Shown here: in pieces, positions 13,231 through 35,109 of the stretch
Layout: every line of letters begins with the position of its first letter
Position numbering within the stretch: position 1 is the first letter of the stretch
Source: an uncultured Ruminococcus sp.
GTDB taxonomy: Bacteria > Bacillota > Clostridia > Oscillospirales > Acutalibacteraceae
NCBI GenBank assembly: GCA_902794395.1
Contig: CADBHB010000001.1
Location: forward strand, 91,289-155,288
Direction of reading: 5' to 3'
DNA: 64,000 nt
Made by a program: the position numbers and the translations under genes
Notes under the pieces: generated by a model
Told to the model about the DNA's origin: nothing
Databases searched by the model: none
The model's input: only the letters and a program-made list of their open reading frames with translations

Positions 13231-13701
13231 ATGGAAAAGGATAGGGCTTCCAAGCGGTTTACCGCTGTGATTTTTTCACTGACAGCTGCTATGATGCTGT
13301 TTGCGTGGATCCACTCGTGTTTTCCGGCAGACCTTTCCTCGCGCGAGAGCGAGGGCGTTATGATGCTGGTGTACAAGCTGTTCGCGCTGTTTGGCGCCGG
13401 GCAGGCGCTTACTCAGCATCTTATACGCAAGCTGGCGCATTTTACGGAGTTTTTTGCGGTCGGCGCCTTGCAGTTTGGCTGCGCCTACTGCTTTGACAGG
13501 CGGCGCCCCTGGCGCTTCGGCGTTTATGTGCTGTCGGCGGGCTTGATGACCGCGGTGATCGACGAAACTATACAGCTCTTTGTCGAGGGACGCGCCGGTA
13601 TGATCGCGGATGTGTGGATAGACCTTGCGGGCGTTTGCTGCGGCGCGGCGCTTATGCTGGGCTGCATTGCCCTGCGTATGAAGCGGAAAGGAAGGAAATG
13701 A
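13231..13701 (+). CDS. VanZ family protein
   Basis: IRKLAHFTEF, DETIQLFVEGRAG and DVWID motifs. Confidence 0.9.
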   Translation: MEKDRASKRFTAVIFSLTAAMMLFAWIHSCFPADLSSRESEGVMMLVYKLFALFGAGQALTQHLIRKLAHFTEFFAVGALQFGCAYCFDRRRPWRFGVYVLSAGLMTAVIDETIQLFVEGRAGMIADVWIDLAGVCCGAALMLGCIALRMKRKGRK

Positions 13702-13705
13702 AGCT

Positions 13706-19472: not shown

Positions 19473-19486
19473 GTTTGGTGAGCAAA

Positions 19487-20401
19487 ATGTATTATTATTC
19501 TTTAAACGAATATTTGAAAAAGACCTTCGGCGAAAAGGTATATAAGCTGTCGCTTGACGGCGGCATGACCTGTCCCAACCGTGACGGCACGCTGGACACG
19601 CGCGGCTGCATCTTTTGCAGCGCCGGAGGCTCGGGCGAGTTCGCGGCGCGGCGCGAGCTATCCGTGACGGCGCAGCTTGAGCAGGCAAAGCAAAAGATCG
19701 CTGCAAAAACGGACTGCCGCAGGTTCATCGCGTATTTTCAGCCCTTTACCAACACCTACGCGCCCGTTAGCTGTCTGCGCAGACTTTTCTGCGAGGCGAT
19801 CGCGCCCGATGAGGTGGCGGCGCTGTCGATAGCTACAAGACCGGACTGCCTGGGCGATGATGTCATCGCGCTGCTCGACGAGCTTAACAAAATAAAGCCG
19901 GTTTGGGTGGAGCTGGGCTTGCAGACTATCCGCCCCGACAGCGCGGAGTATATCCGGCGCGGCTACGAGCTGCCCGTGTATGACGCGGCGGCAAAGCGGC
20001 TCAGGGACATCGGGGTGCAGGTCATCACGCACATCATCCTCGGCTTGCCGCGAGAGAGCCGCGAGGATATGCTGAAAAGCGTGCGCTACGCGGGCGAGAG
20101 GAGCGACGGTATCAAGTTGCAGCTGCTTCACGTGCTCAAGGGCACGGACTTGGAAAAGGACTATGCGGCGGGGCAGTTTGAGGTGATGGAGCGCGGTGAG
20201 TACATCGACCTGCTCTGCGACTGCATAGAAGCGCTGCCGCCCGGGGTGGTGATACACCGCCTCACCGGCGACGGCGACAAGAAGCTTTTGGTCGCGCCCT
20301 TGTGGAGCGGTGACAAAAAGCGGGTGCTCAATGAAATAAACAAAGCCCTGCGCGACAGAAACGTCGTACAGGGCAGGAAATATGAACGCAGCTTCGGTTA
20401 G
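19487..20401 (+). CDS. TIGR01212/YhcC-family radical SAM protein
   Basis: GGMTCPNRDGT...GCIFCS, YFQPFTNTYA, IATRPDCL, VELGLQT, VIHRLTGDG. Confidence 0.92.
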   Translation: MYYYSLNEYLKKTFGEKVYKLSLDGGMTCPNRDGTLDTRGCIFCSAGGSGEFAARRELSVTAQLEQAKQKIAAKTDCRRFIAYFQPFTNTYAPVSCLRRLFCEAIAPDEVAALSIATRPDCLGDDVIALLDELNKIKPVWVELGLQTIRPDSAEYIRRGYELPVYDAAAKRLRDIGVQVITHIILGLPRESREDMLKSVRYAGERSDGIKLQLLHVLKGTDLEKDYAAGQFEVMERGEYIDLLCDCIEALPPGVVIHRLTGDGDKKLLVAPLWSGDKKRVLNEINKALRDRNVVQGRKYERSFG

Positions 20402-21159
20402 TCGGAGCTGTTTTTCTTTTGTTTGCCGCGCAGCAGAAAGAAGCCTATCAGCGCTGCCGCTGCGGCGCCCGAGCAGCAGAGGACGATGACGGGGGTGAGG
20501 CGGTCGGCGTCCTTTTGGCTGACAGTGTTTAGCGTGCCCATATCGTGTATCGGCTCGGTGTTTTGACCATCGGCAGGATTGCCCTTTGAAGACCGCGCTT
20601 TCGGAGCAGAGCCGTGCTTGTCAGCGGAGGTCGTCTTTGGCTCGGTCGCCTTGGGGTGGGCGGCGGATTTGGACGAAGTGTCCGTTCTGCCCACACTGTC
20701 GCTCGCTCTCTGAGTTACAGTGACGCTGCCCGCAGTGCAGCTTCCTACATCAAGCGCTTGAACGTCCGCGTCAACGCAGTCCTCAACGGTGAAGCCGACC
20801 TCGCTGCTGCCCTCGGCTATGGTTTTGAATTCCAGCGTAAAAATCGGAGCTTGTCGGGTTATCTCGGCGCCGTAGGTATCCAGAAAGGAAAGCCGCACAC
20901 GTGACTCGTTTGTGTCGCTGACCACCTGAGCGTCGCCGCAGGGTTTGGCGTCGCGAAATTCCAGCACAGAGGGGTCGTAGGTGAATTCAAAGGTGGCGGC
21001 GCATAGCTTGCGGTCGCACTGTGCTCTGACCTCGATGTCAACAAGGCGGTTGTTTTTGCACTCAATCTCACTGAGCGAAAAGGACACGGCGCACTCGGCG
21101 CGGACGGGAAGGAGGGAGAGAAACATAAACAGCGTAATAACGGCGATGATTCTTTTCAT
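20398..21159 (-). CDS. Membrane-anchored single-cohesin protein
   Basis: Signal peptide; cohesin-like beta-sandwich with FEFTYDPSVLEF and IFTLEFK; S/T/K-rich linker; C-terminal TM helix and basic tail (RGKQKK); no canonical LPxTG. Confidence 0.75.
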   Translation of the reverse strand: MKRIIAVITLFMFLSLLPVRAECAVSFSLSEIECKNNRLVDIEVRAQCDRKLCAATFEFTYDPSVLEFRDAKPCGDAQVVSDTNESRVRLSFLDTYGAEITRQAPIFTLEFKTIAEGSSEVGFTVEDCVDADVQALDVGSCTAGSVTVTQRASDSVGRTDTSSKSAAHPKATEPKTTSADKHGSAPKARSSKGNPADGQNTEPIHDMGTLNTVSQKDADRLTPVIVLCCSGAAAAALIGFFLLRGKQKKNSSD

Positions 21160-21258: not shown

Positions 21259-21391
21259 TTTGGCGGAGAGAAGGTGCTGCGGCAAAGGGAACGACGCACT
21301 GCGCCGCTTGATGGGGCGGGGGAGTCAAGGGTTCATCAACGCTCTCCCTCAAATCCCCTTTACTCCGTTTTTTCAAAACAAAAAAGCACCC
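21259..21391. repeat. tRNA-Ser-derived mini-element, copy A (short form)
   Basis: Begins with TTTGGCGGAGAGAAGG (identical to 34015-34030); shares AACGACGCACTGCGCCGCTTG and GGGGGAGTCAAGGGTTCATCAACGCTCTCCCTCAAA with 33712-33810; ends TCCCC...AAAACAAAAAAGCACCC as at 33961-33998. Confidence 0.9.
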
Positions 21392-21482
21392 GCGAAAAGC
21401 AAAAAGCCAAACCGCCCGACATTTCTGTCAGGCGGCGTTTTTGCGCTCGTTTATTCTGTTATCGGCTTCACAGCTAACGCAA

Positions 21483-21516
21483 AGCCCCGGCAAAACGCGT
21501 CGCGCTCGCCGGGGCT
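21483..21516 (-). terminator. Terminator-like hairpin after the LRR-dockerin gene
   Basis: AGCCCCGGC...GCCGGGGCT 9-bp stem; a second hairpin lies at 21412-21435. Confidence 0.6.
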
Positions 21517-21524
21517 GTATTGGG

Positions 21525-24500
21525 TTATGCTGTTGGCTGTTTTCCTAAGACTATGCCATCGAATTCCGCGAGATATTGCAGTAAAAGGGTCACGTCGGCT
21601 ATGGTCACTTCGCCGTCGCCGTTGGCGTCGGCATTGAAGATAGCAGCGCCCGTAAGGGGTTCTATCTCGGCGATATGGCGCTGGATGGCGGTGACGTCGA
21701 GGACGTTTATCTTGCTGTCGCCGTTCGCGTCGCCGATCAGCAGGGGAACAAAGTCTATTTCGTTTGCGTCGGCGTAGGTTTGCGCGGCTGAGCCTGCAAA
21801 GCCGTAGATCGTAAAGCCCTCAACCGTTACTTCGTCTGAGTTACGGCGTTCATAGCCGAACGCATTTGTTCCGATACTCGTGACCGTTATCGGTATAAGC
21901 ACGTTTGTCATAGAGGTGCCAAAGAATGCGTAGTTGCCGATGGTGGTGATTGTATCGGGGATCACGATCTTCTCTAAGCCGGTGCAGGAGGAGAAAAGAC
22001 TCGCCGCGATTTGGGTACTGCCCGCCTCGAAATGCACGGTTTTGAGCTGTTCGCAGCCGGAGAAGGGACCGTACTGTGCGAAGTCGCCGGCATTGGTGAG
22101 GGTCTTGGGAATGGTGATCTCGGTGATCGGACAGCCGGAAAATGCGGAATTGCCGAGCCTTTGCAGCGACGACGGCAGGGTGACCGTGGTGAGATCAGCG
22201 CAATCTGTGAAAGCCATGCCCTCAATATCGGTCACGGTGTCGGGGAAGCTGATCTCCGTGATACCGGTGCTTCTGAACATCTCGCCGGGGATCCGTGTGG
22301 AGCCGTTGGCGAAGTTGACGGTACGCAGCGCGGTACAACCCTCAAACGCATGATTTGCGCTGCCGCCGGTACCGCAGACGGTGGACGGCAGGTTGACCGT
22401 CTCCAGCGCGGTGCAGTTGCGGAAGGAATAGTTGCCAAGGCTTTTGACGCCCTCGGGAATGGTCAGCGTCTCCAGCGCGGAGCAGCCGTCAAAGGCGTAG
22501 CCTTCAATGGCGGTGATATTGCCGTGGAGCGTGAGGCTGCTCAGCGAGGTGCAGTTTTTGAAGGTGTTGTCTTTAATGATTGTCACACCGGCGGGCGCGG
22601 TGAAGGATTGCAGCGAGGAGCAGTTTGCAAACACGCTGTTCTCAATGGTGGTCATGGCGTCGGGCAGGGTGATGGTTTCAAGCGCCGAACAGCCGTAGAA
22701 GGTCGTGTTATAAAGCGTCGTTACGCCGTCGGGGATCGTCAGACTTTGCAGCGAGGAGCAGTTTTGGAACACGTAGTAGCCGATTTCCTCTAAATCGTCA
22801 GGTAGAGTGATGGCGGTCATGTTGGAGCACTCCGCGAACGCGTCGCGTCCGATCGTCGTCACGGTGTCGGGCAGCTCAATGGTCTGAATACCGGTGCAGC
22901 GGTGGAAGAGATAAGCGGGAATGGCTGTTCTGCCCGCGGTGAAGGTGACGTCGTTCAAGCTGTCGCAGTAGGAGAACGGACCGTAAACGCCGTCTACCGT
23001 CATGTTCGCCGGAATGTTGACGGAGGTCAGCGCGGTGCAGCTTGCGAACGCTTCACTGCCTAAGGTGGTCAGCGTTTCGGGCAGGGTGACAGACGGAAGT
23101 GCTTGACAACGGGCAAAAGCGTTGCTGCCAATGGTCTGCACATTCGTGCTCATCGTCAGATTTTGCAGATTCTCACAGCCGTAGAAGGCGTAGCTTCCGA
23201 TTTCGGTGACGGAGTTGGGAAGGTATACGCTGCTGAGGCTCTTGCAGTTGTAGCACGCGTAGTCGCCGATGGTCGTCAGCGAATTGGCGTTGTTCAGACC
23301 GAACAGGGAACGGAGGTTCTCAAAATTATAAAACGCGCGGGAGCCGATAGCGGTGAGAGTAGAGGGAAGGACGACGTAGCAGCCGTCTTCACTGTTGCCC
23401 GTGCAGTTTTCAAAGAGGTGCGCGGGGATGGTGGTGACGCCGTCGGCAATGGCAACGGAGTACAGCTTTGTCAAGCCGTAGAACGGCTCGCGAGTGCCGC
23501 AGGAGGTCAGGGTCTTGCCGATTTTGACGGTCGTTAATTCCGTCAGACGGCTGAACGCGGAATCACCGATATAGGTGACGCCGTCCCTGACGGTCAGTTT
23601 GGTGATCTGCCGCGGATTGTCGTCGTCGTCCTTGCCGAGATCAACATACATCCACGGCGGATTCTGGCTGTAGTAATCTCCCATAGCGCCGCTGCCGTAG
23701 ATGATCAGCTCCGCCTTGGGAATATCGACCGCCCATTTGACCTCGCCGGTATTGCCGGTGGCAAGAGCGGCGATGAAGGTAAAGCCGTTTTCGGTCGCGT
23801 AGGTTTCGGCGGCGGATTCCGCTTTGCCGCGAATGACAAAGCCGCTTTGCTTGACGGTCGCGTGGTTTTGATCGACGTAATAGCCGATGGAGTATTGTCC
23901 GATGCTCGTGACGCTCGGGGGAATGGTCACGCTGTTGATATTCGCGCCGAGGAACGCGTTTGCGCCGATCGATTGCAGCGTAAAGGGCAGACTCACTGCT
24001 ATCAGCGGACAGCCGACGAACGCGCCCGCCTCAATCGTCGTCAAGCCCTCGTTGAAGGTAACGGCGGTCAGGCTTACGCAGTTGCCGAACGCCGAATCGG
24101 GGATCGTGGTGACGCCGTCGGGAATGGTGACGTCGGTCAGCGCCGTGCCGCCGAAGGCGTATGTTCCGATGTTGCTGAGCGCAGCGGGCAGGCTAAGGGA
24201 TGTGATCTGCTCGCAGTAGCGGAAGGCGTTCGTGCCGATGGCTGTCACGGTGTCGGGCAGATTTACGTCGGTCAGGTTAGGCAGGTCATAGAAGCAGAAA
24301 TCGCCGATCTTGGTCACGCCATTCTGTACAACGACAGCGGTGAGCACATCACGCCACGCGTGCCACGGCGCCGTGGTAGAAGCGGTGTAATCGGCTGTTT
24401 GGGTGCCGCCGTAAATAGTCAGCACGTCGGTGTTGCGGTTGTACTTCCATTGGCAGTCGCCCGTGGTGCCGTTGAGCGCGACAAAGGTGAAGCCATTTTC

Positions 24501-27146
24501 GATAGCGTAGGTCTCGGCGGCGGTGCCGGAGCTGCCGTAAATGGTGAAGCCCTCTGTTTTGTGTAAGTGGTTGAGTTCGTTATAGCCGAAGGCGTCTTCG
24601 CCGATCGCGGTCACGCTGTCCGGAATGTAGACCTCCGTCAGGTTTGGACACCAAAGAAAAGCGTGTTCTCCGATAGAGGTCACGCCCTCATTCAAAGCGA
24701 CGCTTGTCAGTTGAGCGCAGTTCATAAACGCAAAGTCTCCGATGGTTTCTACGCTGTCGGGAAGTGTCAGCTCGGTGATATCGGTGAAAGCAAACGCCTC
24801 CTCTCCTATGTTTTTCAGCCCGCTGCCGAGGGTGACACTTTGAAGATACTTGTCACTGGCAAACGCCATTTTTCCGATGCTCTCTACACTGTCGGGGATG
24901 GTGATTTCGGTCAGCTTGCCGTCCGGTACCGTAATGCCGCAAAGGCTAAATGCCAATCTGCCGATGGTTTGCACGGTGTTGCCGATGGACAGCTCCGTAA
25001 CTTGAGAGAAATCACAAAACGAGAACTCTCCGACGTGCGTTACGCCGTCCTCGATCACGATCTTGGTGGTCTGATCACAAAAACCTCTCCACGGATCGAA
25101 ATAGGTATATGTATCGGTCCCTTGATTATATTCACAGACATAATCCGCCATCGCGCCCTCGCCGCTGATGGTCAGGGTGCCGGTGTAGGGGTCGAACTTC
25201 CATTTGCAGTCGCCCGTTGTACCGCCCGCTGCAACGAAGGGGATTTCGTATTCGTTGGCGTAGGTCTCGGCGGCGGAGCCGGGAACACCGTAGATGGTGA
25301 AGCCGTCGATTTTAACAAGCTCATGGTTTGAATCGGATTTAAAGCCAAACGCGTGGTCAATGATCTCTGTAACGCTTTCGGGGATATAGACCTTCGTAAA
25401 ACCGCACCCGAGAAACGCTTCGGTGCGTATTTCCGCGGGACATTCGCCGATGACAACGCTTGTCAGATTATGACAGCCAACAAACGCTTGCAGATCGACC
25501 CACTCCAAGCTGTCGGGAAGGGTGATCTCGGTCAGACCATAACAAGCGCTAAAAGCACCGGTTCCGATCCTTTTCAGATTTTTTCCAAACGTAATGCTTT
25601 GGAGCTCGGCATCTTTCGTGAATGAATATGCTTCCAATGCCTCCACACTGTCCGGCAGAACCACCTCGGTGAGCTCGCGGAGCAAATAAAACGAGAACTC
25701 TCCGACCGTCTGCACATTATTGCCGATGGTTAGCTCCGTAACATTATAAAACTTATAAAACGAACCGTTGCCGACGTGCGTCACGCCGTCCTCGATCAAG
25801 ATCGTGGTCGTTATCTCACTGTACTCCGCCCACGGAGTGGCGTTTACCATTACATGATCGTATGGGGTTTCATAATCCGCCATAGCGCCCTCGCCGCTGA
25901 CGGTCAGGGTTTGGGTGTAAGGGTCGAACGCCCACAGGCAGTCGCCGGTGGTGCCGGTGGTGGTAAAGAAGGTAAAGCCGTTGTTGTCGGCGTAGGTCGC
26001 GGCGGCGGTGCCGGATTCGCCGTAGACAACGAAATCGTCGACCGGCGTCATCTGCTCCGGCACCTGGCTGTTATACTCCGTATAGCCAAAGGCGTAGTCG
26101 CCGACAAACGTCACGCTTGAGGGGATAATGACGGAAGTGAGTGCGGTGTCCTTGAACGCGCCGATGCCGACCGTCTGCAAGCCGCTGTATAGCGTGATGC
26201 TGCTCAGTGCGTCGCAGCGGGCAAAGGCGGCGGTGCCGATCTCATGCAGGCTCGCGGGGAAATTGACGGTGGTCAGCGCCGTGCAAAGGGAAAACGCCAA
26301 TTGACCGATCTGTGTCAGGGTGTCGGGTATGGTGACCTCCTCCAACTGATTACAGCCGAAAAATGCGCCGTTGCTGACGGTGGTCAAGCCCTCCGAGATC
26401 ACGAGCTTTTTGACAAAGTGAGTGAGAGCCATGTCACGCGCCCAAAACTGCGGCAGGTCCATCGCGCAGTTGCCGTTGCCTTTGGGCGAGATGGTCAGGG
26501 TGTCGGTCGTCGTGTCGAACGACCAGTGGCAGTTGTCTGTTTCGCCCCAAAACTCATTCACGGTAAAGGCGAAATGCATAAAAGCTTTGTTGTAGGTGTA
26601 CTCAAAGCCGGCGGTGGAGTCGCTGTAGATCGTAAAGCCCGAAACAAAGTTCGTTATTTCGCCGTCTGCGCCCTCATAAGCGAACGCGTATTCGCCGATC
26701 TCCAAATCGCAGGGCTGATACGTCAGCGTGACGCTCGCCAAGCCGCAGTTGAGAAAGGCACAGTCGCCGATAGAATCAAGCGGCGTGATGAAAATGACGT
26801 CACAAAGCGAAGTGCAGCCCTCAAAGGCATAGCTGCCGATGCGCGTGATGCTGCCGCCGATGGTGATGGTATTGATGCTGTTGCGGTAAGCTGCCCAGGG
26901 TGTCTCGTAGCCGGAGTTGTAGTCCTGCAGCTCGCCCGTGCCGCCGATGGTCAGCTCGCCGGTGGCGTTTTCAAAGTACCACGTGACGTCGCCGACGGTG
27001 CCGCTGTCGTCGCCCACGGGGGCACTGTCAGCCGGTGCGCCGACCGCTTCGGTTTCGTCCGCTTCCGCTGCGAACGCTGTCATGGGCATGACAGACAGCA
27101 CCAGCAAAGCGGCAAGCAGGATAGATAATAGCTTTTTCATGTTCAT
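21525..27146 (-). CDS. BspA/TpLRR (LRR_5) surface protein with C-terminal dockerin
   Basis: Signal peptide; dozens of IGxxAFxxCxxLxxIxIPxxV repeats; recurring GTTGDCxW...TLTISG and FTIYGxxGxAAETYA capping modules; dockerin loops GDANGDSKINVLD and ADANGDGEVTIAD. Confidence 0.95.
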   Translation of the reverse strand: MNMKKLLSILLAALLVLSVMPMTAFAAEADETEAVGAPADSAPVGDDSGTVGDVTWYFENATGELTIGGTGELQDYNSGYETPWAAYRNSINTITIGGSITRIGSYAFEGCTSLCDVIFITPLDSIGDCAFLNCGLASVTLTYQPCDLEIGEYAFAYEGADGEITNFVSGFTIYSDSTAGFEYTYNKAFMHFAFTVNEFWGETDNCHWSFDTTTDTLTISPKGNGNCAMDLPQFWARDMALTHFVKKLVISEGLTTVSNGAFFGCNQLEEVTIPDTLTQIGQLAFSLCTALTTVNFPASLHEIGTAAFARCDALSSITLYSGLQTVGIGAFKDTALTSVIIPSSVTFVGDYAFGYTEYNSQVPEQMTPVDDFVVYGESGTAAATYADNNGFTFFTTTGTTGDCLWAFDPYTQTLTVSGEGAMADYETPYDHVMVNATPWAEYSEITTTILIEDGVTHVGNGSFYKFYNVTELTIGNNVQTVGEFSFYLLRELTEVVLPDSVEALEAYSFTKDAELQSITFGKNLKRIGTGAFSACYGLTEITLPDSLEWVDLQAFVGCHNLTSVVIGECPAEIRTEAFLGCGFTKVYIPESVTEIIDHAFGFKSDSNHELVKIDGFTIYGVPGSAAETYANEYEIPFVAAGGTTGDCKWKFDPYTGTLTISGEGAMADYVCEYNQGTDTYTYFDPWRGFCDQTTKIVIEDGVTHVGEFSFCDFSQVTELSIGNTVQTIGRLAFSLCGITVPDGKLTEITIPDSVESIGKMAFASDKYLQSVTLGSGLKNIGEEAFAFTDITELTLPDSVETIGDFAFMNCAQLTSVALNEGVTSIGEHAFLWCPNLTEVYIPDSVTAIGEDAFGYNELNHLHKTEGFTIYGSSGTAAETYAIENGFTFVALNGTTGDCQWKYNRNTDVLTIYGGTQTADYTASTTAPWHAWRDVLTAVVVQNGVTKIGDFCFYDLPNLTDVNLPDTVTAIGTNAFRYCEQITSLSLPAALSNIGTYAFGGTALTDVTIPDGVTTIPDSAFGNCVSLTAVTFNEGLTTIEAGAFVGCPLIAVSLPFTLQSIGANAFLGANINSVTIPPSVTSIGQYSIGYYVDQNHATVKQSGFVIRGKAESAAETYATENGFTFIAALATGNTGEVKWAVDIPKAELIIYGSGAMGDYYSQNPPWMYVDLGKDDDDNPRQITKLTVRDGVTYIGDSAFSRLTELTTVKIGKTLTSCGTREPFYGLTKLYSVAIADGVTTIPAHLFENCTGNSEDGCYVVLPSTLTAIGSRAFYNFENLRSLFGLNNANSLTTIGDYACYNCKSLSSVYLPNSVTEIGSYAFYGCENLQNLTMSTNVQTIGSNAFARCQALPSVTLPETLTTLGSEAFASCTALTSVNIPANMTVDGVYGPFSYCDSLNDVTFTAGRTAIPAYLFHRCTGIQTIELPDTVTTIGRDAFAECSNMTAITLPDDLEEIGYYVFQNCSSLQSLTIPDGVTTLYNTTFYGCSALETITLPDAMTTIENSVFANCSSLQSFTAPAGVTIIKDNTFKNCTSLSSLTLHGNITAIEGYAFDGCSALETLTIPEGVKSLGNYSFRNCTALETVNLPSTVCGTGGSANHAFEGCTALRTVNFANGSTRIPGEMFRSTGITEISFPDTVTDIEGMAFTDCADLTTVTLPSSLQRLGNSAFSGCPITEITIPKTLTNAGDFAQYGPFSGCEQLKTVHFEAGSTQIAASLFSSCTGLEKIVIPDTITTIGNYAFFGTSMTNVLIPITVTSIGTNAFGYERRNSDEVTVEGFTIYGFAGSAAQTYADANEIDFVPLLIGDANGDSKINVLDVTAIQRHIAEIEPLTGAAIFNADANGDGEVTIADVTLLLQYLAEFDGIVLGKQPTA

Positions 27147-27808
27147 TCCTCCTCGTTTGTATGATGATGGATTCTATCACTTTCGCTGACGACCAAGCCG
27201 AGGGACTTTGCGTTCATCGCCAGCTCCAGACGGCTTTCATAGCCGGTTTTCTCCATGATGTTCTGGATATGCCGCTTGACGGTGTTGGGAGAGATATGCA
27301 GCCGCTGAGCGATCTCGTCGTTAGAAAGGCTCTCGGTCAGTCCGCGCAAAACGTCAAGCTCTCTTTCGGTCAGGTCGGCGCGCGTGACCTTGCCGAAGCT
27401 CACCCTCGGCGGGTCGTCGGGATAGACGGATTCGCCCGCCATCGTCCTGTCCATAAGGTCAATCAAGCTTTCGTTCTCATACTCCTTGTACCAAAAGCTG
27501 TCGATTCCCGCCGCGCGCGCCTTGTCCTCCCAAGTCGTTTCGACCGCAGAGGTAGTCAGAATGATTTTGATTTTCGGATGTTCGCGCTTGATCTGTTCGG
27601 CGGCGGTCAAGCCGTCGATGCCGTCCGCCATCATCACGTCCATAATCAAGAGGTCGAACTCATTCGTGTCGGCATAAGCGACCGCCTCCCGCGCCGTGCG
27701 CAGCCCTGCCGTCAATGTATAGCCATTCGCCGCGCGGACGAACATTTCAAAAAAGCCGCGCGAGATATTCTGATCGTCTGCCACGACGACCCTTACAGAA
27801 GCGTTCAC
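27143..27808 (-). CDS. NarL/LuxR-family response regulator
   Basis: Receiver motifs VVADD and LLIMDVMM (phospho-Asp); C-terminal LuxR HTH LTERELDVL...ISPNTVKRHI. Its stop overlaps the ATG of the LRR gene. Confidence 0.92.
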   Translation of the reverse strand: MNASVRVVVADDQNISRGFFEMFVRAANGYTLTAGLRTAREAVAYADTNEFDLLIMDVMMADGIDGLTAAEQIKREHPKIKIILTTSAVETTWEDKARAAGIDSFWYKEYENESLIDLMDRTMAGESVYPDDPPRVSFGKVTRADLTERELDVLRGLTESLSNDEIAQRLHISPNTVKRHIQNIMEKTGYESRLELAMNAKSLGLVVSESDRIHHHTNEEE

Positions 27809-27845
27809 AGCATCACACCCCTTTCATTTGGATATACTCTTTTAT

Positions 27846-27875
27846 ATTATACCATGACAAAAAACGTGTTGTCTA
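27846..27875 (-). promoter_or_regulatory. Promoter of the response regulator-LRR operon
   Basis: TAGACA-18 bp-TATAAT with TG extension (TGGTATAAT). Confidence 0.6.
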
Positions 27876-28022
27876 TCACCTAAAAGTACCATTTGTGCAA
27901 CGGGACGTTGCATCACTCCGCCTTTGGAGAGTATAGCGTTATCATAAAGCTTCATCAACTTCAAAGACACTGCCATGAAAAATTTTGGGCACAAGCTCGA
28001 CAGTGAGTTCAATAAGCTTTTG

Positions 28023-28109
28023 TGTAGCAGATGTAGCAGATAAAATCATTAATCTCTATAAAAGAGAAACATATAGAAATCAACATATTTACCTGCTACA
28101 CCTGCTACA
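28023..28109. other. Inverted doubled octamer around an AT-rich core (origin-like relic)
   Basis: TGTAGCAG-A-TGTAGCAG (28023-28039) and CTGCTACA-C-CTGCTACA (28093-28109): 16/17 inverted match. Confidence 0.7.
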
Positions 28110-28199
28110 ACCTGAAACAGATGGTTCTTCCGTGAATAAAAAAGCAGTAATATGAAAAACGCTTCCATACCCAAACGGCAGGAAGCGCGGTGGATTATT

Positions 28200-28305
28200 C
28201 TGTCATCCCGAGCAGGATTGTGAAGTAATGTAGCCGAAGTACCCCTTTCGGCGATGAACGAACCGCCTCTGTCAAGGGGATTCTTCGGCAAGCTCAGAAT
28301 GACAG
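28200..28305. repeat. ~106-bp palindromic repeat element of the TGTCATTCTGAGC...GCTCAGAATGACA type
   Basis: Imperfect terminal inverted repeats CTGTCATCCCGAGC / GCTCAGAATGACAG (12/14). Confidence 0.6.
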
Positions 28306-29559
28306 CGATAGTTTAAACTCGGGCAGGCTTTGCACGGTCATTGTGCCGCCTGCTTCTTCTGCGCTGCGGCGCAGGGACAGCAGACCGCCGCTTTCGGCTA
28401 TCTCGCCCTTCGGCGGTTTACCGTTATTGGTAATGACGATCTCATTTTCGCTGAGCGTCACATTCAGGCGGTCGCCGCCTGCGTGCTTGACCGTGTTCGC
28501 GGCGCACTCCTGTATCGCGTGGGCGAGGATCGTGCGTTTGCTTGCCTGTTCGGACAGGCTGCCGTGAAGCTCAACCGTAACGCCGATCGACTGTACCATC
28601 CACAGCACCTCTGTCAGCAGATCGTCCTTATGCTCGGTCGGCTCTTTGTACTCGCCGAGCAGAAATGAATTCATCTGTGTCGTCGTGATATAGACGAGGT
28701 TCGCGTCGGTGTCGTCGGGGTGGTCCAGATAATGCCGCCCCATGAGCAGGACCTGTCCGAGCTGATTGTGCAGAGCGGCGCGCGCCGCCGCTTCTTCCTG
28801 CGCGACGAACATATCGCCCGACAGGTCAGACACCGCATGCATACGGCGCTTGATTTCCTGCAAATGCGCGTTCTTCGCTTTCAGCTCCTCGGTCACGCGG
28901 TAGCGCTCGGTCACGTCAATTGCCGTCAGGCAGTTATATTCTCTGCCGCTCTCGGTCAGGGCGCTTTGCACAAACTGACAAACCGTTCCGCTTCGGAGCT
29001 TTACAAAAGTTCTGTCGTTCTGCGATTCTCCCTCAGCTTCTATCTGCGCCGTAAAGCGGTTTGCGTCGGAGAGAAGGTGTCCCGTCAGCTCGCGGCATAT
29101 CGCGTTCATTTTGAGGTTGGAGAGCAGGACGGTTCCTTTATCGTCGCTGATACAGATTCCCGCAGGAAGCAGATCGACCGTCTGACGGATCGCGTCGGGC
29201 GTCAGGTGCGTATTCCGAAATTTGACGTCGCTGAGGAACAGCAGGATCAGTACGACGGTACAGATCAGCTCTCCGCATACGATCCACAGCCACGGCTGAG
29301 CGAACAGCGCCCATTCAAAAGACCGATATTTACATTCGTCCTCGGGCGAGATGAATCGCGTCATGGCAAAGTCCATAATAACGATCAGCAGCGCAAAGCA
29401 CAGCAGGAAGTTGATGACGGAAACGATCAGGTGCTTTTTTTCGCGTTTGTATCGGAATGTCTGAAAAAGCTCGGCGGTCTGACCGATCATAAGCAGGATC
29501 ACAAAAATGCCGATCAGATAATACAGCAGCGATCCGCTGATCGACTGTAAGCTCGTCAT
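28294..29559 (-). CDS. Membrane sensor histidine kinase, HisKA_3/NarX-like
   Basis: 3 N-terminal TMs; PAS-like LPAGICISDDKG segment; H-box RAALHNQLGQVL; N-box ECAANTVKHAGG; shortened G-boxes NNG and GGLLSL. Confidence 0.75.
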   Translation of the reverse strand: MTSLQSISGSLLYYLIGIFVILLMIGQTAELFQTFRYKREKKHLIVSVINFLLCFALLIVIMDFAMTRFISPEDECKYRSFEWALFAQPWLWIVCGELICTVVLILLFLSDVKFRNTHLTPDAIRQTVDLLPAGICISDDKGTVLLSNLKMNAICRELTGHLLSDANRFTAQIEAEGESQNDRTFVKLRSGTVCQFVQSALTESGREYNCLTAIDVTERYRVTEELKAKNAHLQEIKRRMHAVSDLSGDMFVAQEEAAARAALHNQLGQVLLMGRHYLDHPDDTDANLVYITTTQMNSFLLGEYKEPTEHKDDLLTEVLWMVQSIGVTVELHGSLSEQASKRTILAHAIQECAANTVKHAGGDRLNVTLSENEIVITNNGKPPKGEIAESGGLLSLRRSAEEAGGTMTVQSLPEFKLSLSF

Positions 29560-31199
29560 ACAGCCCCACCTCCCGTCGCGTTGATTGTCAGGAAGGTAAG
29601 ATCGTCGCTCACCTTGCGCTCTACAGGCAGCAGGGCCTGATGCAAATCGGGATCGCGCTGTGCTTCGATTGCCAGACGTATACCGCTCTTTGTCAGCGAG
29701 GCGGTCATACGCTTCATATACGGCAGGTAGGCTTCGATCACCGTTTCAAAGGTATCATATAAATTATGAATCGCGGATAAGGGCAGGTCGGAATACTCCT
29801 CGCCGACAGCTGCCGCCTGTATACCGCAGCACTCCAAAAACCGCGTCGTTTCCTGCAAGGACAGAAACAGCTCTCGGTTATGCTTCGGGAGCGTTTCTTC
29901 GGATAAAAGTATCAAATTGCTCTTGCGCTTTGAATAGGCGTTATAGACGCAGCATTCGGCAAGGGCTTTGCTGAATTCGGTCGTGTCAGGCTCAACGTCC
30001 GCTAAAAGCGCCTCGATCTTCTTCTGCTTCGGATAGAGCGCGCGGGCTATCTTGTCATACACCTGATTCTGCGCTTCAAAATGCGCCTGCTTCTCTTTCA
30101 GCTTGTTCTCAACGGCGATCAGGTCGTTTTCTTCGCTGAGGATTTCGTTCGCGGCTTCCAAACGGCAGTTCTCACGGTGCAGTTCGGTTTCATCCTCTGT
30201 CCAGAAGGCATAGCCCGCCTGTATCGGCATACCGGAAAGCCGCGTATCGTCATCAAGACAGACCGGCGCGGTAACGGACGCGGATAGCTGTTCCGCCGAC
30301 GCCGTGACGGGGACAGCGGATATGAAAACAGGCTCAAACCTCTTGTCCGCGATCATCACGGGCAGACCGAGCTGAGAGAAAAAGCCGCTGTGATTTTCGT
30401 TATATGGTATCAACCGCTCACGTATACAAATTTCCATAACGCCCAGCATACAGAAGATGTGTACCTCGGGTACATTGAACATAGCCGGTATTTTGTGCTT
30501 GTTAAAAAAGAGGACACAGACTAAAACCAGCGTTACCCATATCGCGATCACGACGATCAGCATGACCGTCATACGGACGGGGCGTTTTCTCGTTTCACGG
30601 AACAGCAGGATAAAACCCGCAAGCGCAGTCAGTCCCATCCACGCATACATCAGATAAAAGCCGATCCCGAGAGAATAAGTGCCGGTTTTGACGGCAAATT
30701 GAGAAAGCCCGACCTTTGGAGCGTAGACAAATCCGTGCAGATCGTTCGTCATCACCATCAGCGATAGCGCGATAGCGGGGATCAGAAGCAGCATTTCACG
30801 GTGCGTATCTTCCTCCCGTTCTCCGCGGCGAATCCGGATACAGGTCATCAAAAACAGCGTTGGGATCATCACCTGAGGTATCCAGTAGGCATACACGGCA
30901 ACCCTTGACGGTATCGCGTCGGCTTCGGCGATCCGGTATTTGAACACCCGCAGCGTCAGATACAGCAGCATGAGTAATGCCGCCGCGAGGATATACGCGC
31001 GCGCCTTTGTCGGCAACAGCCTTGAACGGACTGACTGTATCCAGTAAAGCAGCAGCCCGGCGTAGATTAGAAAATTAGCACTGAACATAAATGTGTTTAG
31101 AAACAGACTGTCCGTGCCGGTGAACAGATAACATACGCCCGACAAAATCAGAAAGCCGATAAACACAATCGTCTGTTTGATTTCTTTTCGGTCACCCAC
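29556..31199 (-). CDS. 7TM sensor-like membrane protein with a degenerate, kinase-less cytoplasmic part
   Basis: ~7 TMs, PAS-like region and coiled coil but no H/N/G boxes. GTG start behind an AAGGAGG RBS; stop overlaps the kinase ATG. Confidence 0.75.
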   Translation of the reverse strand: MGDRKEIKQTIVFIGFLILSGVCYLFTGTDSLFLNTFMFSANFLIYAGLLLYWIQSVRSRLLPTKARAYILAAALLMLLYLTLRVFKYRIAEADAIPSRVAVYAYWIPQVMIPTLFLMTCIRIRRGEREEDTHREMLLLIPAIALSLMVMTNDLHGFVYAPKVGLSQFAVKTGTYSLGIGFYLMYAWMGLTALAGFILLFRETRKRPVRMTVMLIVVIAIWVTLVLVCVLFFNKHKIPAMFNVPEVHIFCMLGVMEICIRERLIPYNENHSGFFSQLGLPVMIADKRFEPVFISAVPVTASAEQLSASVTAPVCLDDDTRLSGMPIQAGYAFWTEDETELHRENCRLEAANEILSEENDLIAVENKLKEKQAHFEAQNQVYDKIARALYPKQKKIEALLADVEPDTTEFSKALAECCVYNAYSKRKSNLILLSEETLPKHNRELFLSLQETTRFLECCGIQAAAVGEEYSDLPLSAIHNLYDTFETVIEAYLPYMKRMTASLTKSGIRLAIEAQRDPDLHQALLPVERKVSDDLTFLTINATGGGAV

Positions 31200-31248
31200 A
31201 ATCAGCCCTCCTTTCGTTTCGATTCCTTTATGTAAAATTATATCTGAA

Positions 31249-31368
31249 TCATAAGATAATTGCAACCGGCTGACAAAGAAATCGACACAACAAAAGCCGC
31301 TCTCCGAAATCAGAGAACTCTGTTCGTATATTGAGACGATTACCGTGTTCGTCGTAGTATCTGATCAT
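31249..31368 (-). CDS. Candidate 39-aa small protein (MIRYYDEHGNRLNIRTEFSDFGERLLLCRFLCQPVAIIL)
   Basis: AGGAAGGTGA RBS 6 nt before ATG; lies directly upstream of the sensor pair on the same strand; below the ORF-track cutoff. Confidence 0.4.
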   Translation of the reverse strand: MIRYYDEHGNRLNIRTEFSDFGERLLLCRFLCQPVAIIL

Positions 31369-31689
31369 AAACCGTCACCTTCCTTGCCCCGGATTTAAAC
31401 AAGAATCCTGCTTGCGTTATAACTAAAAATATTATATAATATATGTGTTAAAACTAATAATGAATTGGTATTTTCCCTTATACTGTACCGTGGAGACCGT
31501 CGTTTCACTATCCGGAAAATGAGGTCGGGGGAACGGAAATGGCTTGAAATCAGGGCATTTGCGGGTTTCAGCCGTCAGCGAGAGCATGGATAAGTTTCCT
31601 CTGACTGAAAGGGCAAAATTGAGAAAAATCGCTGCTGTAACTCTCGGTTTACTGTCAAGGGCAATTATATAATTGTTACACTGCACCCC

Positions 31690-31717
31690 CACTGCCGTTA
31701 CCGGCGGTGGGGAGCGG
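31690..31717 (+). repeat. 28-nt hairpin motif, copy 1 (CACTGCC-N6-GGCGGTG-GGGAGCGG)
   Basis: Matches 32130-32157 at 21 of 22 non-loop positions. Confidence 0.8.
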
Positions 31718-31736
31718 AGAAGAAGGAGGAACGCAT

Positions 31737-32102
31737 ATGGAAATAAATAAACTGCCATATAAACTGACAGTCTGCAAGGTGACAGATATTGTAGAGATTG
31801 ATACAAAGAAAGATTTTTATTTTATCGGAAAGACTGATGAAGAAATATCGCTGGTCTGCGTTACTGAAGAAACTCCTACAAACACCATCGAGCGTGAAGA
31901 CGGCTGGCGAGGCTTTCGTATTCAGGGAGTACTGGATTTCTCACTTATCGGTATTCTATCTAAAATATCCGGGATTCTCGCAGAAAATAAAATCGGCATA
32001 TTTGCGGCATCAACCTTCAATACAGATTATATCCTTGTGAAGGAAGAAAACTTTGAACGGGCTTTGGATGTTCTGCGCAAAGGCGGTTATGTTGTCGTAT
32101 AA
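31737..32102 (+). CDS. ACT-domain protein (CASTOR/ACT_7-like)
   Basis: IGKTDEEISLVC, GWRGFRIQGVLDFSLIGIL, FAASTFNTDYILVK; AAGGAGG RBS. Confidence 0.9.
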   Translation: MEINKLPYKLTVCKVTDIVEIDTKKDFYFIGKTDEEISLVCVTEETPTNTIEREDGWRGFRIQGVLDFSLIGILSKISGILAENKIGIFAASTFNTDYILVKEENFERALDVLRKGGYVVV

Positions 32103-32129
32103 GGATAGCAGGATGCCACACGGCACCAA

Positions 32130-32157
32130 CACTGCCATCATAGGCAGTGGGGAGCGG
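32130..32157 (+). repeat. 28-nt hairpin motif, copy 2 (CACTGCC-N6-GGCAGTG-GGGAGCGG)
   Basis: Direct repeat of 31690-31717, 440 bp downstream. Confidence 0.8.
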
Positions 32158-32191
32158 GATGTTGTAATCACCAAGCTGGAGGTGGTGATAA

Positions 32192-32743
32192 TTGAAGCGT
32201 AAGACAACAAAAGAAATACTTGCAGAATCATACCTTGAGCTTGCGGAGAGAAAAACAATCAACAAAATATCTGTTGTTGACATAGTAGAGAACTGTTCAA
32301 TGACGAAACCGACATTTTACAGGTACTTTAAGGATAAAAACGACCTCATTTCATGGCTCTTTGTTCAGGCAACGAAGGAAAATTTAGACAGGATCGGTAC
32401 CAACGGCTGTGCGTGGATCGATACGCTGCTTGATGGTATACGAAGCTATGAACAATACCGTAAATATGTGGTTAACGCCTTGAAGCATACCAGCGGCCGG
32501 GAGTCTTTCATCAATATCATGAATGAGACCGAAATTGAATTTATTGAATTAGAAATCAAGAGGAAGCTCGGTCAGGATACCGTTCCTGAAAACCTTGCTG
32601 CGATCGTAAGAATTTATTGTTATGGTTCCGGGCAATATATCTGCGATTGGCTTATGCACAGCAAGCCTGTTTCCTGTGAAAAAGTTGCGCAAGCTCTTAA
32701 AGCTGCTATCCCGGAGGAATTAAGACCATTTTTGTTTGAATAA
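32192..32743 (+). CDS. TetR/AcrR-family transcriptional regulator
   Basis: N-terminal HTH ISVVDIVENCSMTKPTFYRYFKDK; TTG start behind a GGAGGTG RBS. Confidence 0.9.
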   Translation: MKRKTTKEILAESYLELAERKTINKISVVDIVENCSMTKPTFYRYFKDKNDLISWLFVQATKENLDRIGTNGCAWIDTLLDGIRSYEQYRKYVVNALKHTSGRESFINIMNETEIEFIELEIKRKLGQDTVPENLAAIVRIYCYGSGQYICDWLMHSKPVSCEKVAQALKAAIPEELRPFLFE

Positions 32744-32894
32744 CTCGCAAATAACTTTACTCTTTTCTTCATCGGTAAAATGATATTACGGGTAACTAAA
32801 GCCGTAACTCGACATACGCTATAGTATTCCGCTATAATATAATTGTGCACAATAAAGAAGCGCACAACAGCGAAATAAACAGGAGGAATATATC

Positions 32895-33359
32895 ATGACA
32901 CTTGAAGAAAAGATCAAGATGCTTAACGATTATGCGGTCGGCTGGTATTCCAGCTCACAGGCGGACTATATCCACGAGGCTATTTTCCGTGCACAGGGGT
33001 TTGTGAAGTTTGCGGATCGCTGCAAGGAAGAGGGCGATGAGGAGCTGGAGGAAGCAAGAAAGTGTACGGCAAGGGTCGTTTCCCTCGGCGGACAGCCTGC
33101 GATCGGATATGTCGAGCAGCCGCTCTTCTGCGAGATCAAAGATCTTCTGAAGGATTGGGACGACGGATTCAGGGAATTCAAGGGAGTCGAGAGAATGGAG
33201 AATGAAATAGCGAATCTTGCGGACGACTCCATCACCAGAAAGCTTTTGGAAGGCTTCATTGAGTGTGAAGCCGAGCACCGTGCATGGGTGGCACAGCATA
33301 TGGGCATTATCGAAAGAATCGGCTATGAGAACTATCTGACCCTGCAGCTTGGCGACTAA
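32895..33359 (+). CDS. Bacterioferritin-like protein with altered ligands
   Basis: Aligns without gaps to the first two Bfr helices (H28, G36, E47, E51, R61) and the C-terminal ExxH...W...IGYENYL segment. Confidence 0.8.
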   Translation: MTLEEKIKMLNDYAVGWYSSSQADYIHEAIFRAQGFVKFADRCKEEGDEELEEARKCTARVVSLGGQPAIGYVEQPLFCEIKDLLKDWDDGFREFKGVERMENEIANLADDSITRKLLEGFIECEAEHRAWVAQHMGIIERIGYENYLTLQLGD

Positions 33360-33371
33360 GACACCGGCATC

Positions 33372-33536
33372 ATGGAAAACAAAAAGTATAAGTGTGCCAA
33401 ATGCGGCTATACCTATGATCCCGAAGTCGGAGATCCGAAGCACGGGATCGAACCGGGCACTCCGTTTGAAGCCCTGCCGGAGGACTGGAAATGCCCTCGC
33501 TGCAAGCGGGGCAAGGAGAAATTAAACAAGGCATAA
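33372..33536 (+). CDS. Rubredoxin (54 aa, missed by the ORF track)
   Basis: [54 protein letters not shown]: two CxxC motifs with YDPExGDP and LPEDWxCP. Confidence 0.95.
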
Positions 33537-33698
33537 TTACGCGATATCACTATACTTCGCTATTAAGGTAGATGTGATATTTTGTGTTCTTCATTTGTAA
33601 AACCTCCGTAATTTTCAGATTATATCCTACAAATCCAACTATCCGACTGTTTTATAAAAGCCAAAGGGAGACAACTTCCTTACGAAGTGCCTCCCTTC

Positions 33699-33998
33699 GG
33701 GTGCTTTTTGTTTTGGCGGAGAGAAGGTACTGCGGTGCTATAAACGACGCACTGCGCCGCTTGCTGCTGCGTGTGGGGGAGTCAAGGGTTCATCAACGCT
33801 CTCCCTCAAAACAGTCCACAGGACTGTTTTGACCCGCCTGCGGCGTGCGCCGGTGGGCGCTTTCTCCGCCTTTGGAGAACTTTCATCTTTTATAAAACGT
33901 CATCAACGGCGGGATGAAAAGTGCTGTCGGCTTGAAGTTTCATCAACGCTCTCCCTCAAATCCCCTTCTCTCCTTTTTTCCAAAACAAAAAAGCACCC
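33699..33998. repeat. tRNA-Ser-derived mini-element, copy B (long form, ~300 bp)
   Basis: Ends are imperfect inverted repeats built from the tRNA 3' end plus terminator arm. Internal 22-bp direct repeat TTCATCAACGCTCTCCCTCAAA (33789-33810, 33939-33960) and palindrome AAAACAGTCC-ACA-GGACTGTTTT. Confidence 0.85.
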
Positions 33999-34016
33999 TT
34001 GTGGGTGCTTTTGTTT

Positions 34017-34109
34017 TGGCGGAGAGAAGGGGATTTGAACCCCTGGTACGGCGATTACCGTACACATGATTTCCAATCATGCTCCTTCGGCCAGCTCGGA
34101 CATCTCTCC
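34017..34109 (-). tRNA. tRNA-Ser(GGA) with encoded CCA
   Basis: GGAGAGA/TCTCTCC acceptor stem, CATGA-TTGGAAA-TCATG anticodon arm, long variable arm, GGTTCAAATCC T-loop; terminator at 33982-34017. Confidence 0.97.
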
Positions 34110-34308: not shown

Positions 34309-35109
34309 ATGAAAAAAGTATTATCCGCGATTCTTGCGGGTGTTATGGTCTGCACCATGGCGTTTGCCTTTGCGGGCTGTGGCAGCAGCAAGGCAAAGAA
34401 AATCACCAAGGTAGACGATCTTAAGGGCGCTATCATCGGCGTGCAGTCCGGCACCACCGGCGACAACATCGCTACCGAATACGAGAAGGACGGCGCTACC
34501 GTTAACCGCTACAACAAGGGCGCTGATGCGGTAGTAGCTCTGAAGAACGGAAAGATCGACTGTGTTATCATCGACAGCGAGCCCGCTAAGGCGTTTGTAG
34601 CCAACAACAGCGGTCTTAAGATCCTCGACACCGCCGACGACGAGAACTTCGCCAAAGAGGAGTACGCCATCTGCATAGCCAAGGGCAACGAGGCGCTGCT
34701 TGAGAAGTTCAACACCGCTCTCGGTGAGCTTAAGGAAGACGGCACCGTTTCCAAGATCATCAACCACTTCATCGGCGACGAGGAGTACACCTACTCCACT
34801 CCCGAAGGCACCCAGTATCCCAACGGCGAGCTGCACATGGCTACCAACGCTGAGTTTGAGCCTTATGAATACATCGCCGACAATAAGATCGTAGGCATCG
34901 ACCCCATGATCGCTACCGCCATCTGCGACAAGCTCGGCTACAAGCTGGTTATCGACAACATGGAGTTTGAGTCTATCATCGGTTCCATTCAGACCGGCAA
35001 GGCTGATTTCGGTATGGCGGGCATGACCGTCACCGAAGAGAGAAAGAAGAGCGTCAGCTTCACCGACACCTACGCGGAAGCCGCTCAGGTCATCATCGTC
35101 AAGAAATAA
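34309..35109 (+). CDS. Polar amino-acid ABC transporter substrate-binding lipoprotein
   Basis: Lipobox FAFAGC; IGVQSGTTG, GKIDCVIIDSEPA, ATNAEFEPYEY, VSFTDTYA. Confidence 0.92.
   Translation: MKKVLSAILAGVMVCTMAFAFAGCGSSKAKKITKVDDLKGAIIGVQSGTTGDNIATEYEKDGATVNRYNKGADAVVALKNGKIDCVIIDSEPAKAFVANNSGLKILDTADDENFAKEEYAICIAKGNEALLEKFNTALGELKEDGTVSKIINHFIGDEEYTYSTPEGTQYPNGELHMATNAEFEPYEYIADNKIVGIDPMIATAICDKLGYKLVIDNMEFESIIGSIQTGKADFGMAGMTVTEERKKSVSFTDTYAEAAQVIIVKK

Follow-up and report, generated by a model that had tools for sequence, protein, structure and literature searches.

We analyzed a 64,000-nucleotide stretch of the genome of an uncultured Ruminococcus sp. (contig CADBHB010000001.1 of assembly GCA_902794395.1, positions 91,289 to 155,288; hereafter, the window), in which a 12.3-kb block of genes lies between two short repeats, A and B, on the downstream side of a tRNA-Ser(GGA) gene. 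Our analysis indicates that A and B are almost certainly two units of a protein-less, non-coding family of tRNA-tail repeats, with units of 130-300 nt. It is, on balance, probable that both were units of a tandem array behind tRNA-Ser(GGA), derived from a protein-less family present throughout the lineage, and that the gene block (the cargo) was captured between them. In what follows, G000 denotes the source genome (2.2 Mb, 99.3% complete) and C numbers denote its contigs; comparative tallies were compiled by hand from search tables.

The 16-mer TTTGGCGGAGAGAAGG occurs three times on the plus strand of the window (21259, 33712 and 34015), against 0.03 matches expected by chance in shuffled sequence, and its copy at 34015 overlaps the 3' terminus of the gene for tRNA-Ser(GGA) (34017-34109, minus strand; ARAGORN; Rfam tRNA, 53.4 bits). 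These three positions, all in the same orientation, had been given in a preliminary description of this DNA and are correct. The last 14 nt of the tRNA gene, CCTTCTCTCCGCCA, form the tail S that is copied in B and A, and occur exactly three times in the 2.2-Mb genome, at the tRNA gene itself (34017-34030), in B (33714-33727) and in A (21261-21274). All three copies share a single orientation, i.e., they are direct repeats of the kind found in islands integrated at tRNA genes (tDNAs) and in cis-mobilizable elements (CIMEs). The tRNA end also takes part in a long hairpin (33956-34038, minus strand) composed of tRNA positions 55-76, the terminator GCACCC-ACAA-GGGTGC, an A6 bulge and an antisense tail copy, S' (33956-33973), which an inverted-repeat search showed to be complementary to tRNA-Ser positions 55-72 at 18/18 positions. 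This hairpin spans ~37 bp (fold, -33.9 kcal/mol; z = -8.76), and a terminator scan placed a terminator-like site within it, at 34012-33989. The inverted tail copy is present in each element (33956-33973 in B, 21349-21367 in A), a feature that was absent from the preliminary description.

Unit B (33699-33998, minus strand) was delimited by alignment with A and by R1, a covariance model of the family core built in this study, which matches B at 33751-33841 (68 bits, E = 5.7e-14). Read in the direction of the tRNA, B consists of a leader, S', a rearranged 5' core, a nested repeat resembling repetitive extragenic palindromic (REP) sequences, the central hairpin of the core (33808-33830; AAAACAGTCC-ACA-GGACTGTTTT), the 3' core and S, followed by a 15-nt copy of the terminator arm; its arms match tRNA-Ser at 18/18 (S') and 14/14 (S) positions. 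A direct repeat of 28-29 nt, GGGTGCTTTT(T)GTTTTGGCGGAGAGAAGG, comprising the tail and the terminator arm, brackets B at 33699 and 34003, as had been described, and the last cargo gene has a terminator whose 3' half is supplied by the cargo-side end of B (terminator scan). Unit A (21259-21391, minus strand) is a solo unit located 12.4 kb from the tRNA (R1 match at 21298-21374, 26.8 bits), and comprises the t' arm GGGTGCTTTTTTGTTTTG, an A-rich leader, S' (16/18 positions matching tRNA-Ser), a core without the central hairpin, and S (14/14). The alignment upheld the earlier statement that A equals B minus 150 bp: the two differ by one 150-nt gap, with copies of a 22-nt direct repeat, TTCATCAACGCTCTCCCTCAAA, at its two ends (33789 and 33939), and their longest identical stretch is 36 nt. 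Most of the sequence missing from A is the REP-like repeat (33841-33913, 66-67 nt), which is unrelated to the tail family and simply nested in B; positions 143-215 of B match the tandem arrays C5:177036-177284, C14:2895-3173 and C14:17950-18194 at 82-95% identity.

In many intergenic regions of G000, this REP-like repeat of 66-67 nt (…GCCGGTGGGCGC…CCGCCTTTGGAGAA…CATCAACGGCGG…), a family of its own, occurs as tandem arrays. Further arrays were observed at C16:23321-23488 and C22:47298-47465, and C16 also contains head-to-tail repeats of a 29-nt sub-unit.

Membership of the tail family was assigned to R1 cores that lie directly behind a tRNA gene, in the same orientation, and that carry both S' and S of that tRNA. 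In the direction of the tRNA, a unit is composed of an A-rich leader, S', a shared core with a covarying hairpin, and S; here, S' is the antisense of the adjoining tRNA from position 54/55 to ~72, and S is a sense copy of its last 13-22 nt, ending exactly at CCA. The shared core contains the motifs GAAGGCGAGCG ... AAAAC-stem-GTTTT ... GAGAG ... GATGA ... CACACGCC ... AAGCG. Beyond B, units of G000 are located behind the tRNA genes Ala-CGC, Leu-TAA, Leu-CAA, Leu-GAG, Arg-ACG, Arg-CCT, Gly-TCC, Pro-TGG, Glu-CTC, Val-CAC (two genes) and Gly-GCC (a decayed copy).

The arms change with the tRNA that precedes them. Matches to the local tRNA amount to 18/18 positions for Ser, 17/18 for Ala, 16/16 and 18/19 for Leu-TAA, 16/16 for Leu-CAA, 18/19 for Leu-GAG, 14/14 for Arg-ACG and 17/18 for Val, with small indels in Pro and Gly; the identity of S' to the local tRNA ranges from 14/14 to 18/19 positions in most units. 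Since tRNAs differ greatly at the arm positions, the arms are locus-specific copies. A T-loop difference in tRNA-Ser(GGA) is likewise tracked by the arm, with TTCAAAT accompanied by ATTTGA in G000 and TTCGAAT by ATTCGAA in a second genome (G006). Judged from these sequences, the arms copy the local tRNA, not tRNA-Ser; the earlier view of A and B as elements derived from tRNA-Ser has to be abandoned, as 12 or more other tRNA genes are followed by the same core, with arms that match each of them.

Units with different arms have related cores. Those of the tRNA-Ser and tRNA-Gly(TCC) units both hold the 20-mer AAGCGGCGCAGTGCGTCGTT, and, within one genome, cores behind different tRNAs have subfamily features in common and are more alike than units of the same tRNA across species. 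The central hairpin is the most conserved part of the family, its pairing being kept through two-sided changes in 12 aligned units (stems CAGTCC/GGACTG, CGTCAC/GTGACG, CGCTCC/GGAGCG and CGTGCC/GGCACG). Strong folding is also predicted for the S-X-S' hairpins, where X is the terminator (z = -6 to -12), and S' and S pair over ~10 bp, leaving NCCA unpaired. When the region and the array of one relative were searched against Rfam 15, the tRNA alone passed the gathering score, with other matches far below it, and a consensus scan revealed no promoters inside the units. Two other delimitations of the unit were considered and rejected: terminator X was ruled out as part of the element for at least tRNA-Gly(GCC), whose unit-free paralogue in Ruminococcus sp. 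JE7B6 has the same GTACC-type terminator, and a whole-tRNA inverted duplication was ruled out, as similarity ends at position 54. We also observed a subfamily with an extra module of ~95 nt (GCCGCCGGTGGCGGATGAAGGGAG…GAGGAAG…) between GGTGACGAG-ACGACC and ACCATGTTTCAA, represented at both tRNA-Val(CAC) genes and in C19 (positions 630-760, 300-540 and 500-560 of three extracted loci).

R1 identified 20 copies in G000, 15 of which lie directly downstream, on the same strand, of 12 different tRNA genes; the other five are three copies at contig ends, one behind a tRNA-like 3' fragment, and A. The complete genome of JE7B6 holds 17 copies, including 14 directly behind co-oriented tRNAs, where simple arithmetic gives a chance expectation of ~0.1, and two that follow a 3' fragment of tRNA-Arg(CCT). 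Across other genomes of the R. bromii group, 42/60 loci have a copy at most 200 nt downstream of a co-oriented tRNA, with more than 10 amino-acid specificities represented. The check for copies at other tRNAs proposed in the preliminary description turned out positive. The refuting condition set there applies in part: copies are widespread, but they are tRNA-linked and not randomly scattered. The family is present in 15/18 genomes of the genus (the R. bromii group) and in 0/12 genomes from other families of the order, and its distribution within the bacterial family (Acutalibacteraceae) is patchy (6/139 other sampled genera). Named carriers include R. bromii ATCC 27255, Ruminococcoides intestinale, R. 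intestinalis and Eubacterium sp. OM08-24. Literature searches aimed at a published description of such an element found none.

Units are gained and lost between species and are amplified in tandem. In one genome, 5 nt separate tRNA-Arg(TCT) from tRNA-His, against ~190-260 nt, with a unit, in two others; likewise, tRNA-Ser(GGA) has no unit in JE7B6 and is followed by units in G000, G006 and G012. Tandem arrays of 2-3.5 units reach 99% identity between units and often finish with a unit cut within the 5' half of the core, and a decayed tRNA-Gly(GCC) unit is common to G000 and JE7B6. At ~409360-409910 of JE7B6, we observed the 3' half of a tRNA-Arg(CCT) without its 5' half, followed by 2.3 tandem units at 99% identity; no known RNA family was found in the region upstream of this 3' half. 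In G012 (C56, positions 2522-2621 of the extracted locus), the second unit behind tRNA-Ser(GGA) is interrupted by 100 consecutive N, representing either a scaffold gap or masked bases.

The DNA enclosed by A and B makes this region a tRNA-linked accessory islet bordered by family units. Pfam analysis of the open reading frames (ORFs) of the cargo (21392-33698, 12.3 kb) identified, on the minus strand, an LRR_5/dockerin gene (21525-27146, 1873 amino acids [aa]), a LuxR-type response regulator (27143-27808) and two histidine-kinase-like genes (28294-29559 and 29556-31265), and, on the plus strand, TetR (32192-32743) and ferritin-like (32895-33359) genes. The small minus-strand ORF labeled ACT in the preliminary description (31432-31806, 124 aa) has no Pfam match. 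The cargo holds no recombinase gene, and neither integrase nor transposase was detected by Pfam among its ORFs of at least 120 aa from A to B, as had been claimed. Its G+C content equals that of the flanks, save for 42% at 31-33 kb, and the best match of its histidine kinase across the 18 genus genomes has 35% identity, i.e., there is no close homologue. The LRR_5/dockerin gene is highly repetitive internally, with periods of 69 nt and ~740 nt, and metagenome contigs end within it.

Comparison with JE7B6 revealed the empty site that the preliminary description had predicted in relatives. In JE7B6 (1145492-1148286), the order is a radical-SAM gene (+), tRNA-Ser(GGA) (+), a plain terminator, a cohesin gene (+) that begins 63 nt after the tRNA, and a solute-binding protein (SBP) gene (+). 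The order in the window is the radical-SAM gene (19475-20401, plus strand; Radical_SAM and Radical_SAM_C domains), the cohesin-domain gene (20398-21159, minus strand; Pfam Cohesin), A, the cargo, B, tRNA-Ser on the minus strand, and the SBP gene (34309-35109, plus strand; Pfam SBP_bac_3). The radical-SAM proteins are 74% identical between the two genomes and anchor the synteny on one side, and the SBP gene, orthologues of which adjoin tRNA-Ser in G006, G012 and G002, anchors it on the other; the cohesin proteins, 32% identical, mark the ancestral downstream neighbor of tRNA-Ser. From these gene orders it follows that, relative to JE7B6, the segment spanning tRNA-Ser and the cohesin gene lies inverted in place, with the radical-SAM and SBP genes on either side. 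Here, 12.7 kb (B, cargo and A) separate tRNA-Ser from the cohesin gene, and the cargo is absent from the JE7B6 junction. In the direction of the tRNA, the layout reads tRNA(S), terminator, S', core of B, S and terminator arm, then the cargo, then terminator arm, S', core of A, S and the cohesin promoter, so that the cargo sits where compact arrays hold a 4-nt loop, a short hairpin or a linker. Contigs that encode identical proteins either stop in the tail repeat or match G000, and no strain-level empty site was seen among them. An insertion in this genome is the likely explanation of the difference, rather than a deletion in JE7B6.

Several observations weigh against capture of the cargo by mobile units. 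The polarity just given is taken from one relative, JE7B6, in which the cohesin protein is only 32% identical, and the host-like composition of the cargo, together with its genus-typical dockerin, may point to native DNA moved by rearrangement rather than to an acquired island. Arrays elsewhere are compact and almost never bound islands, so that cargo capture is drawn from this single case. Near-identical cores at two different tRNAs were not seen, the cores being ~75-88% alike, so that recent movement of units to new tRNAs is not demonstrated; an equivalent pattern could result from concerted evolution of old units that possibly have a function. Finally, the search of the genome for a partner enzyme found none among the recombinase, transposase and reverse-transcriptase classes included.

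The repeated tails could also be explained by nested integrase-mediated integration at tRNA-Ser, in which A, B and the tRNA end would be sites of the attL/attR type, B a decayed mini-element, and the cargo a CIME-like segment that a helper could excise. Consistent with this, the tRNA 3' end lies as direct repeats on either side of both B and the cargo, the syntenic site of JE7B6 is empty, and the boundary of S' at G53|T54 and the start of S near 61-63 correspond to the two edges of the T-loop. Some tDNA integrases reportedly cross over in the T-loop, an observation attributed to Williams in 2002. CIME accretion at tRNA 3' ends is established (PMC5704250; PMC4383910), and prophages of the R. 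bromii group do enter tRNAs, but those observed use the anticodon loop, outside the units, and an inverted tail copy is not part of attL/attR. Furthermore, the same core is found behind at least 12 tRNAs in 2.2 Mb, and behind more than 20 tRNA species group-wide, with matching arms; because one core serves so many tRNAs with matched arms, as many integrase specificities would be needed, where a tDNA island or CIME has a single one, and no integrase lies at or near the locus. The recombinases of G000 are few, comprising one Xer-like protein, two phage-type integrases away from tRNAs and one integrase fragment 0.9 kb beyond a tRNA-Val unit, with none near these loci save this fragment; a search for the tRNA-Ser-targeting integrase suggested in the preliminary description found none. 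We consider this explanation distinctly improbable, and the former interpretation of A and B as nested att scars of one tRNA-Ser integration is superseded by their membership of a multi-tRNA family with locus-matched arms.

Alternatively, the units may be functional, non-mobile tRNA-trailer modules, kept in step with each tRNA by gene conversion, with the cargo being chromosomal DNA placed by rearrangement. Such modules could serve as a second terminator or insulator, or as a small RNA in which S' at the 5' end pairs with the tRNA 3' half; S' and S, which pair over ~10 bp with NCCA free, could also form a tRNA-like acceptor helix with a 3' CCA that is handled by tRNA-processing enzymes. A function is favored by the retention of the core motifs and the covarying hairpin between species with protein identities of only 65-75%, and by the A and T runs that flank the hairpin as in a two-way terminator, although neither a promoter inside the units (consensus scan) nor an Rfam family match was found. 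Units also lie within tRNA operons (Pro-unit-Val, Arg-unit-His and Glu-unit-5S) and must therefore be co-transcribed, and the in-place inversion of the segment from tRNA-Ser to cohesin relative to JE7B6 indicates that rearrangement did occur here. Harder to reconcile with a conserved role are the many truncated or decayed units in which the hairpin or an arm is missing (Gly-GCC, Glu, Arg-CCT, Leu-CAA, C19 and A), the filling of the same tRNA in some species and its emptiness in others, and copy numbers per tRNA that range from 0 to 3.5. We regard functional trailers as unlikely, though deserving of more credence than integrase-mediated integration. Chance similarity, or an assembly artefact that would have generated repeated tails, is to be considered negligible. 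Metagenome contigs of the species of G000 do often break in tRNA-Ser, which indicates that the repeats disturb assembly, but the junction on the side of A was re-found at 99% identity in the independent metagenome assembly ERZ1029115 and that on the side of B, identical, in ERZ27280517, and this recurrence of both junctions excludes an artefact; moreover, the count of the 16-mer is far above the shuffled expectation, and the family is present in complete genomes.

Returning to mobile units that form arrays and captured the cargo, these would be DNA of a selfish or duplicative kind, positioned at the 3' end of tRNA genes. Placement would proceed by structure- or homology-directed strand exchange or copying, with both arms taken from the target tRNA, one junction at G53|T54, the T-loop edge, and the other near position 61-63. 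Arrays would grow and shrink via recombination between the repeated tails, insertion or rearrangement at the S-hairpin-S' palindrome would have trapped the cargo between two units, and A x B recombination could lead to its loss. We put forward this insertion mechanism tentatively, with modest credence at best. It is conceivable, if doubtful, that the units represent an undescribed class of protein-less mobile element, in which both arms would be written from the target tRNA tail by a structure-recognizing reaction at the T-loop edge, and tail palindromes would capture and release islets without an integrase. The recombinant A x B junction was not found, at two gap lengths, in metagenome contigs of the Joint Genome Institute (JGI), where the species may be unrepresented.

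Candidate partners were sought among known enzyme classes. The DEDD recombinase of IS110/IS1111 (PF01548) and TnpB/IscB (PF07282) are both absent from G000, so that neither a bridge-RNA element nor an omega-RNA element is indicated, and no serine recombinases were found in the genome. Copying by a reverse transcriptase was discarded, the sole reverse transcriptase being a fragment of a group II intron maturase at a contig end. An HUH partner of the REP-associated tyrosine transposase (RAYT) type was also rejected; a RAYT-like gene is present, yet Y1 genes do not co-occur with units across the genus, as Y1_Tnp is lacking in JE7B6 despite its 17 units, and units are lacking in G009 and G011 despite strong Y1_Tnp matches. 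This RAYT-like gene lies at C15:49349-49978 and scored 59.5 bits against a cut-off of 80 with the model for REP-associated tyrosine transposases.

A phage origin was equally rejected. Six viral contigs matched the units; in the two that were inspected, the unit is host flank beside a prophage att site, and these contigs must include host flank because the displaced tRNA 3' half precedes a normal tail unit. In these IMG/VR contigs, prophages of the R. bromii group sit in the anticodon loop of tRNA-Met and tRNA-Asn (positions 13500-14050 and 14200-14480 of the two extracted loci).

The locus shares features with several known systems. As in CIMEs and islands at tRNA 3' ends (PMC5704250; Islander, PMC4383910), a duplicated tRNA end marks the borders, copies are stacked in tandem at one tRNA, the cargo lacks an integrase and the site varies between relatives; unlike in those elements, a single core is shared by many tRNAs, the arms being fitted to each tRNA, an inverted copy of the tail is part of every unit, the search for a cognate integrase found none, and the units (130-300 nt) usually bound nothing. 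The units also resemble miniature inverted-repeat transposable elements (MITEs), REP sequences and their hairpin-forming doublets (REPINs) with RAYT, and the palindrome-associated transposable elements (PATEs) of IS200/IS605, in being protein-less, hairpin-rich and multicopy, in their location at gene 3' ends, and in their tandem or clustered, assembly-breaking copies. They differ from all of these repeats in lying almost only behind tRNA genes, from REP/REPIN-RAYT and IS200/IS605 PATE systems in the lack of co-occurrence with Y1 (HUH) genes, and from MITEs in having neither fixed terminal inverted repeats nor a short fixed target duplication. Instead, their ends are target copies of 14-23 nt in both orientations, different at every tRNA; the repeated tail in the units measures 13-29 nt.

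In E. coli, repeats of 178 bp reportedly lie behind tyrT (rtT RNA/tpr region), as Rossi et al. in 1981 and Bosl & Kersten in 1991 are said to have described, and these are transcribed together with the tRNA. Like the units, the tyrT repeats are said to be arranged in tandem directly after the tRNA, each ending in a copy of the tRNA 3' terminus; unlike the units, they reportedly occupy a single locus behind a single tRNA, with no inverted tail copy and no multi-tRNA family. A further likeness is with integron attC and CTX-phage attP sites, which reportedly are recognized by structure and not by a fixed sequence: the sense and inverted tails could similarly fold into a target-mimicking duplex, and the junction at G|TT recalls the integron core site, said to be GTTRRRY. 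The T-loop GTTCRA, unlike integron sites, does not fit GTTRRRY, and there are no cassette ORFs here. The E. coli tyrT repeat locus is mentioned in 10.1101/2024.07.17.603846.

It is routine to interpret duplications of tRNA 3' ends as att scars left by integrases and to set the limits of islands by them. In the R. bromii lineage, most such duplications are small units with both tail orientations of the preceding tRNA, and island callers will mis-set borders in this lineage. As hot spots of repetition, the units break assemblies and are a probable cause of rearrangements, an example being the in-place inversion and 12-kb insert described here, at a locus within the cohesin/dockerin (amylosome) gene neighborhood of a gut bacterium that is an important degrader of starch. 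Were the arms to be copied from the target upon insertion, the mechanism would lie outside the catalogued routes of transposition and integration. The family is experimentally tractable, since units are present in a cultured strain, R. bromii ATCC 27255, where one lies behind tRNA-Leu(GAG).

Further repeats were observed next to units. In G000 C29 (~19700-19860), an 11-nt unit, CAACCAAATGT, is repeated in tandem beside the terminator that follows a solo tail unit. In G000 C44 (positions 660-1030 of the extracted locus), copies of 5S rRNA alternate with tRNA-Asn beyond the tRNA-Glu unit; in G006, this 5S/tRNA-Asn end is located 1.6 kb away from tRNA-Ser.

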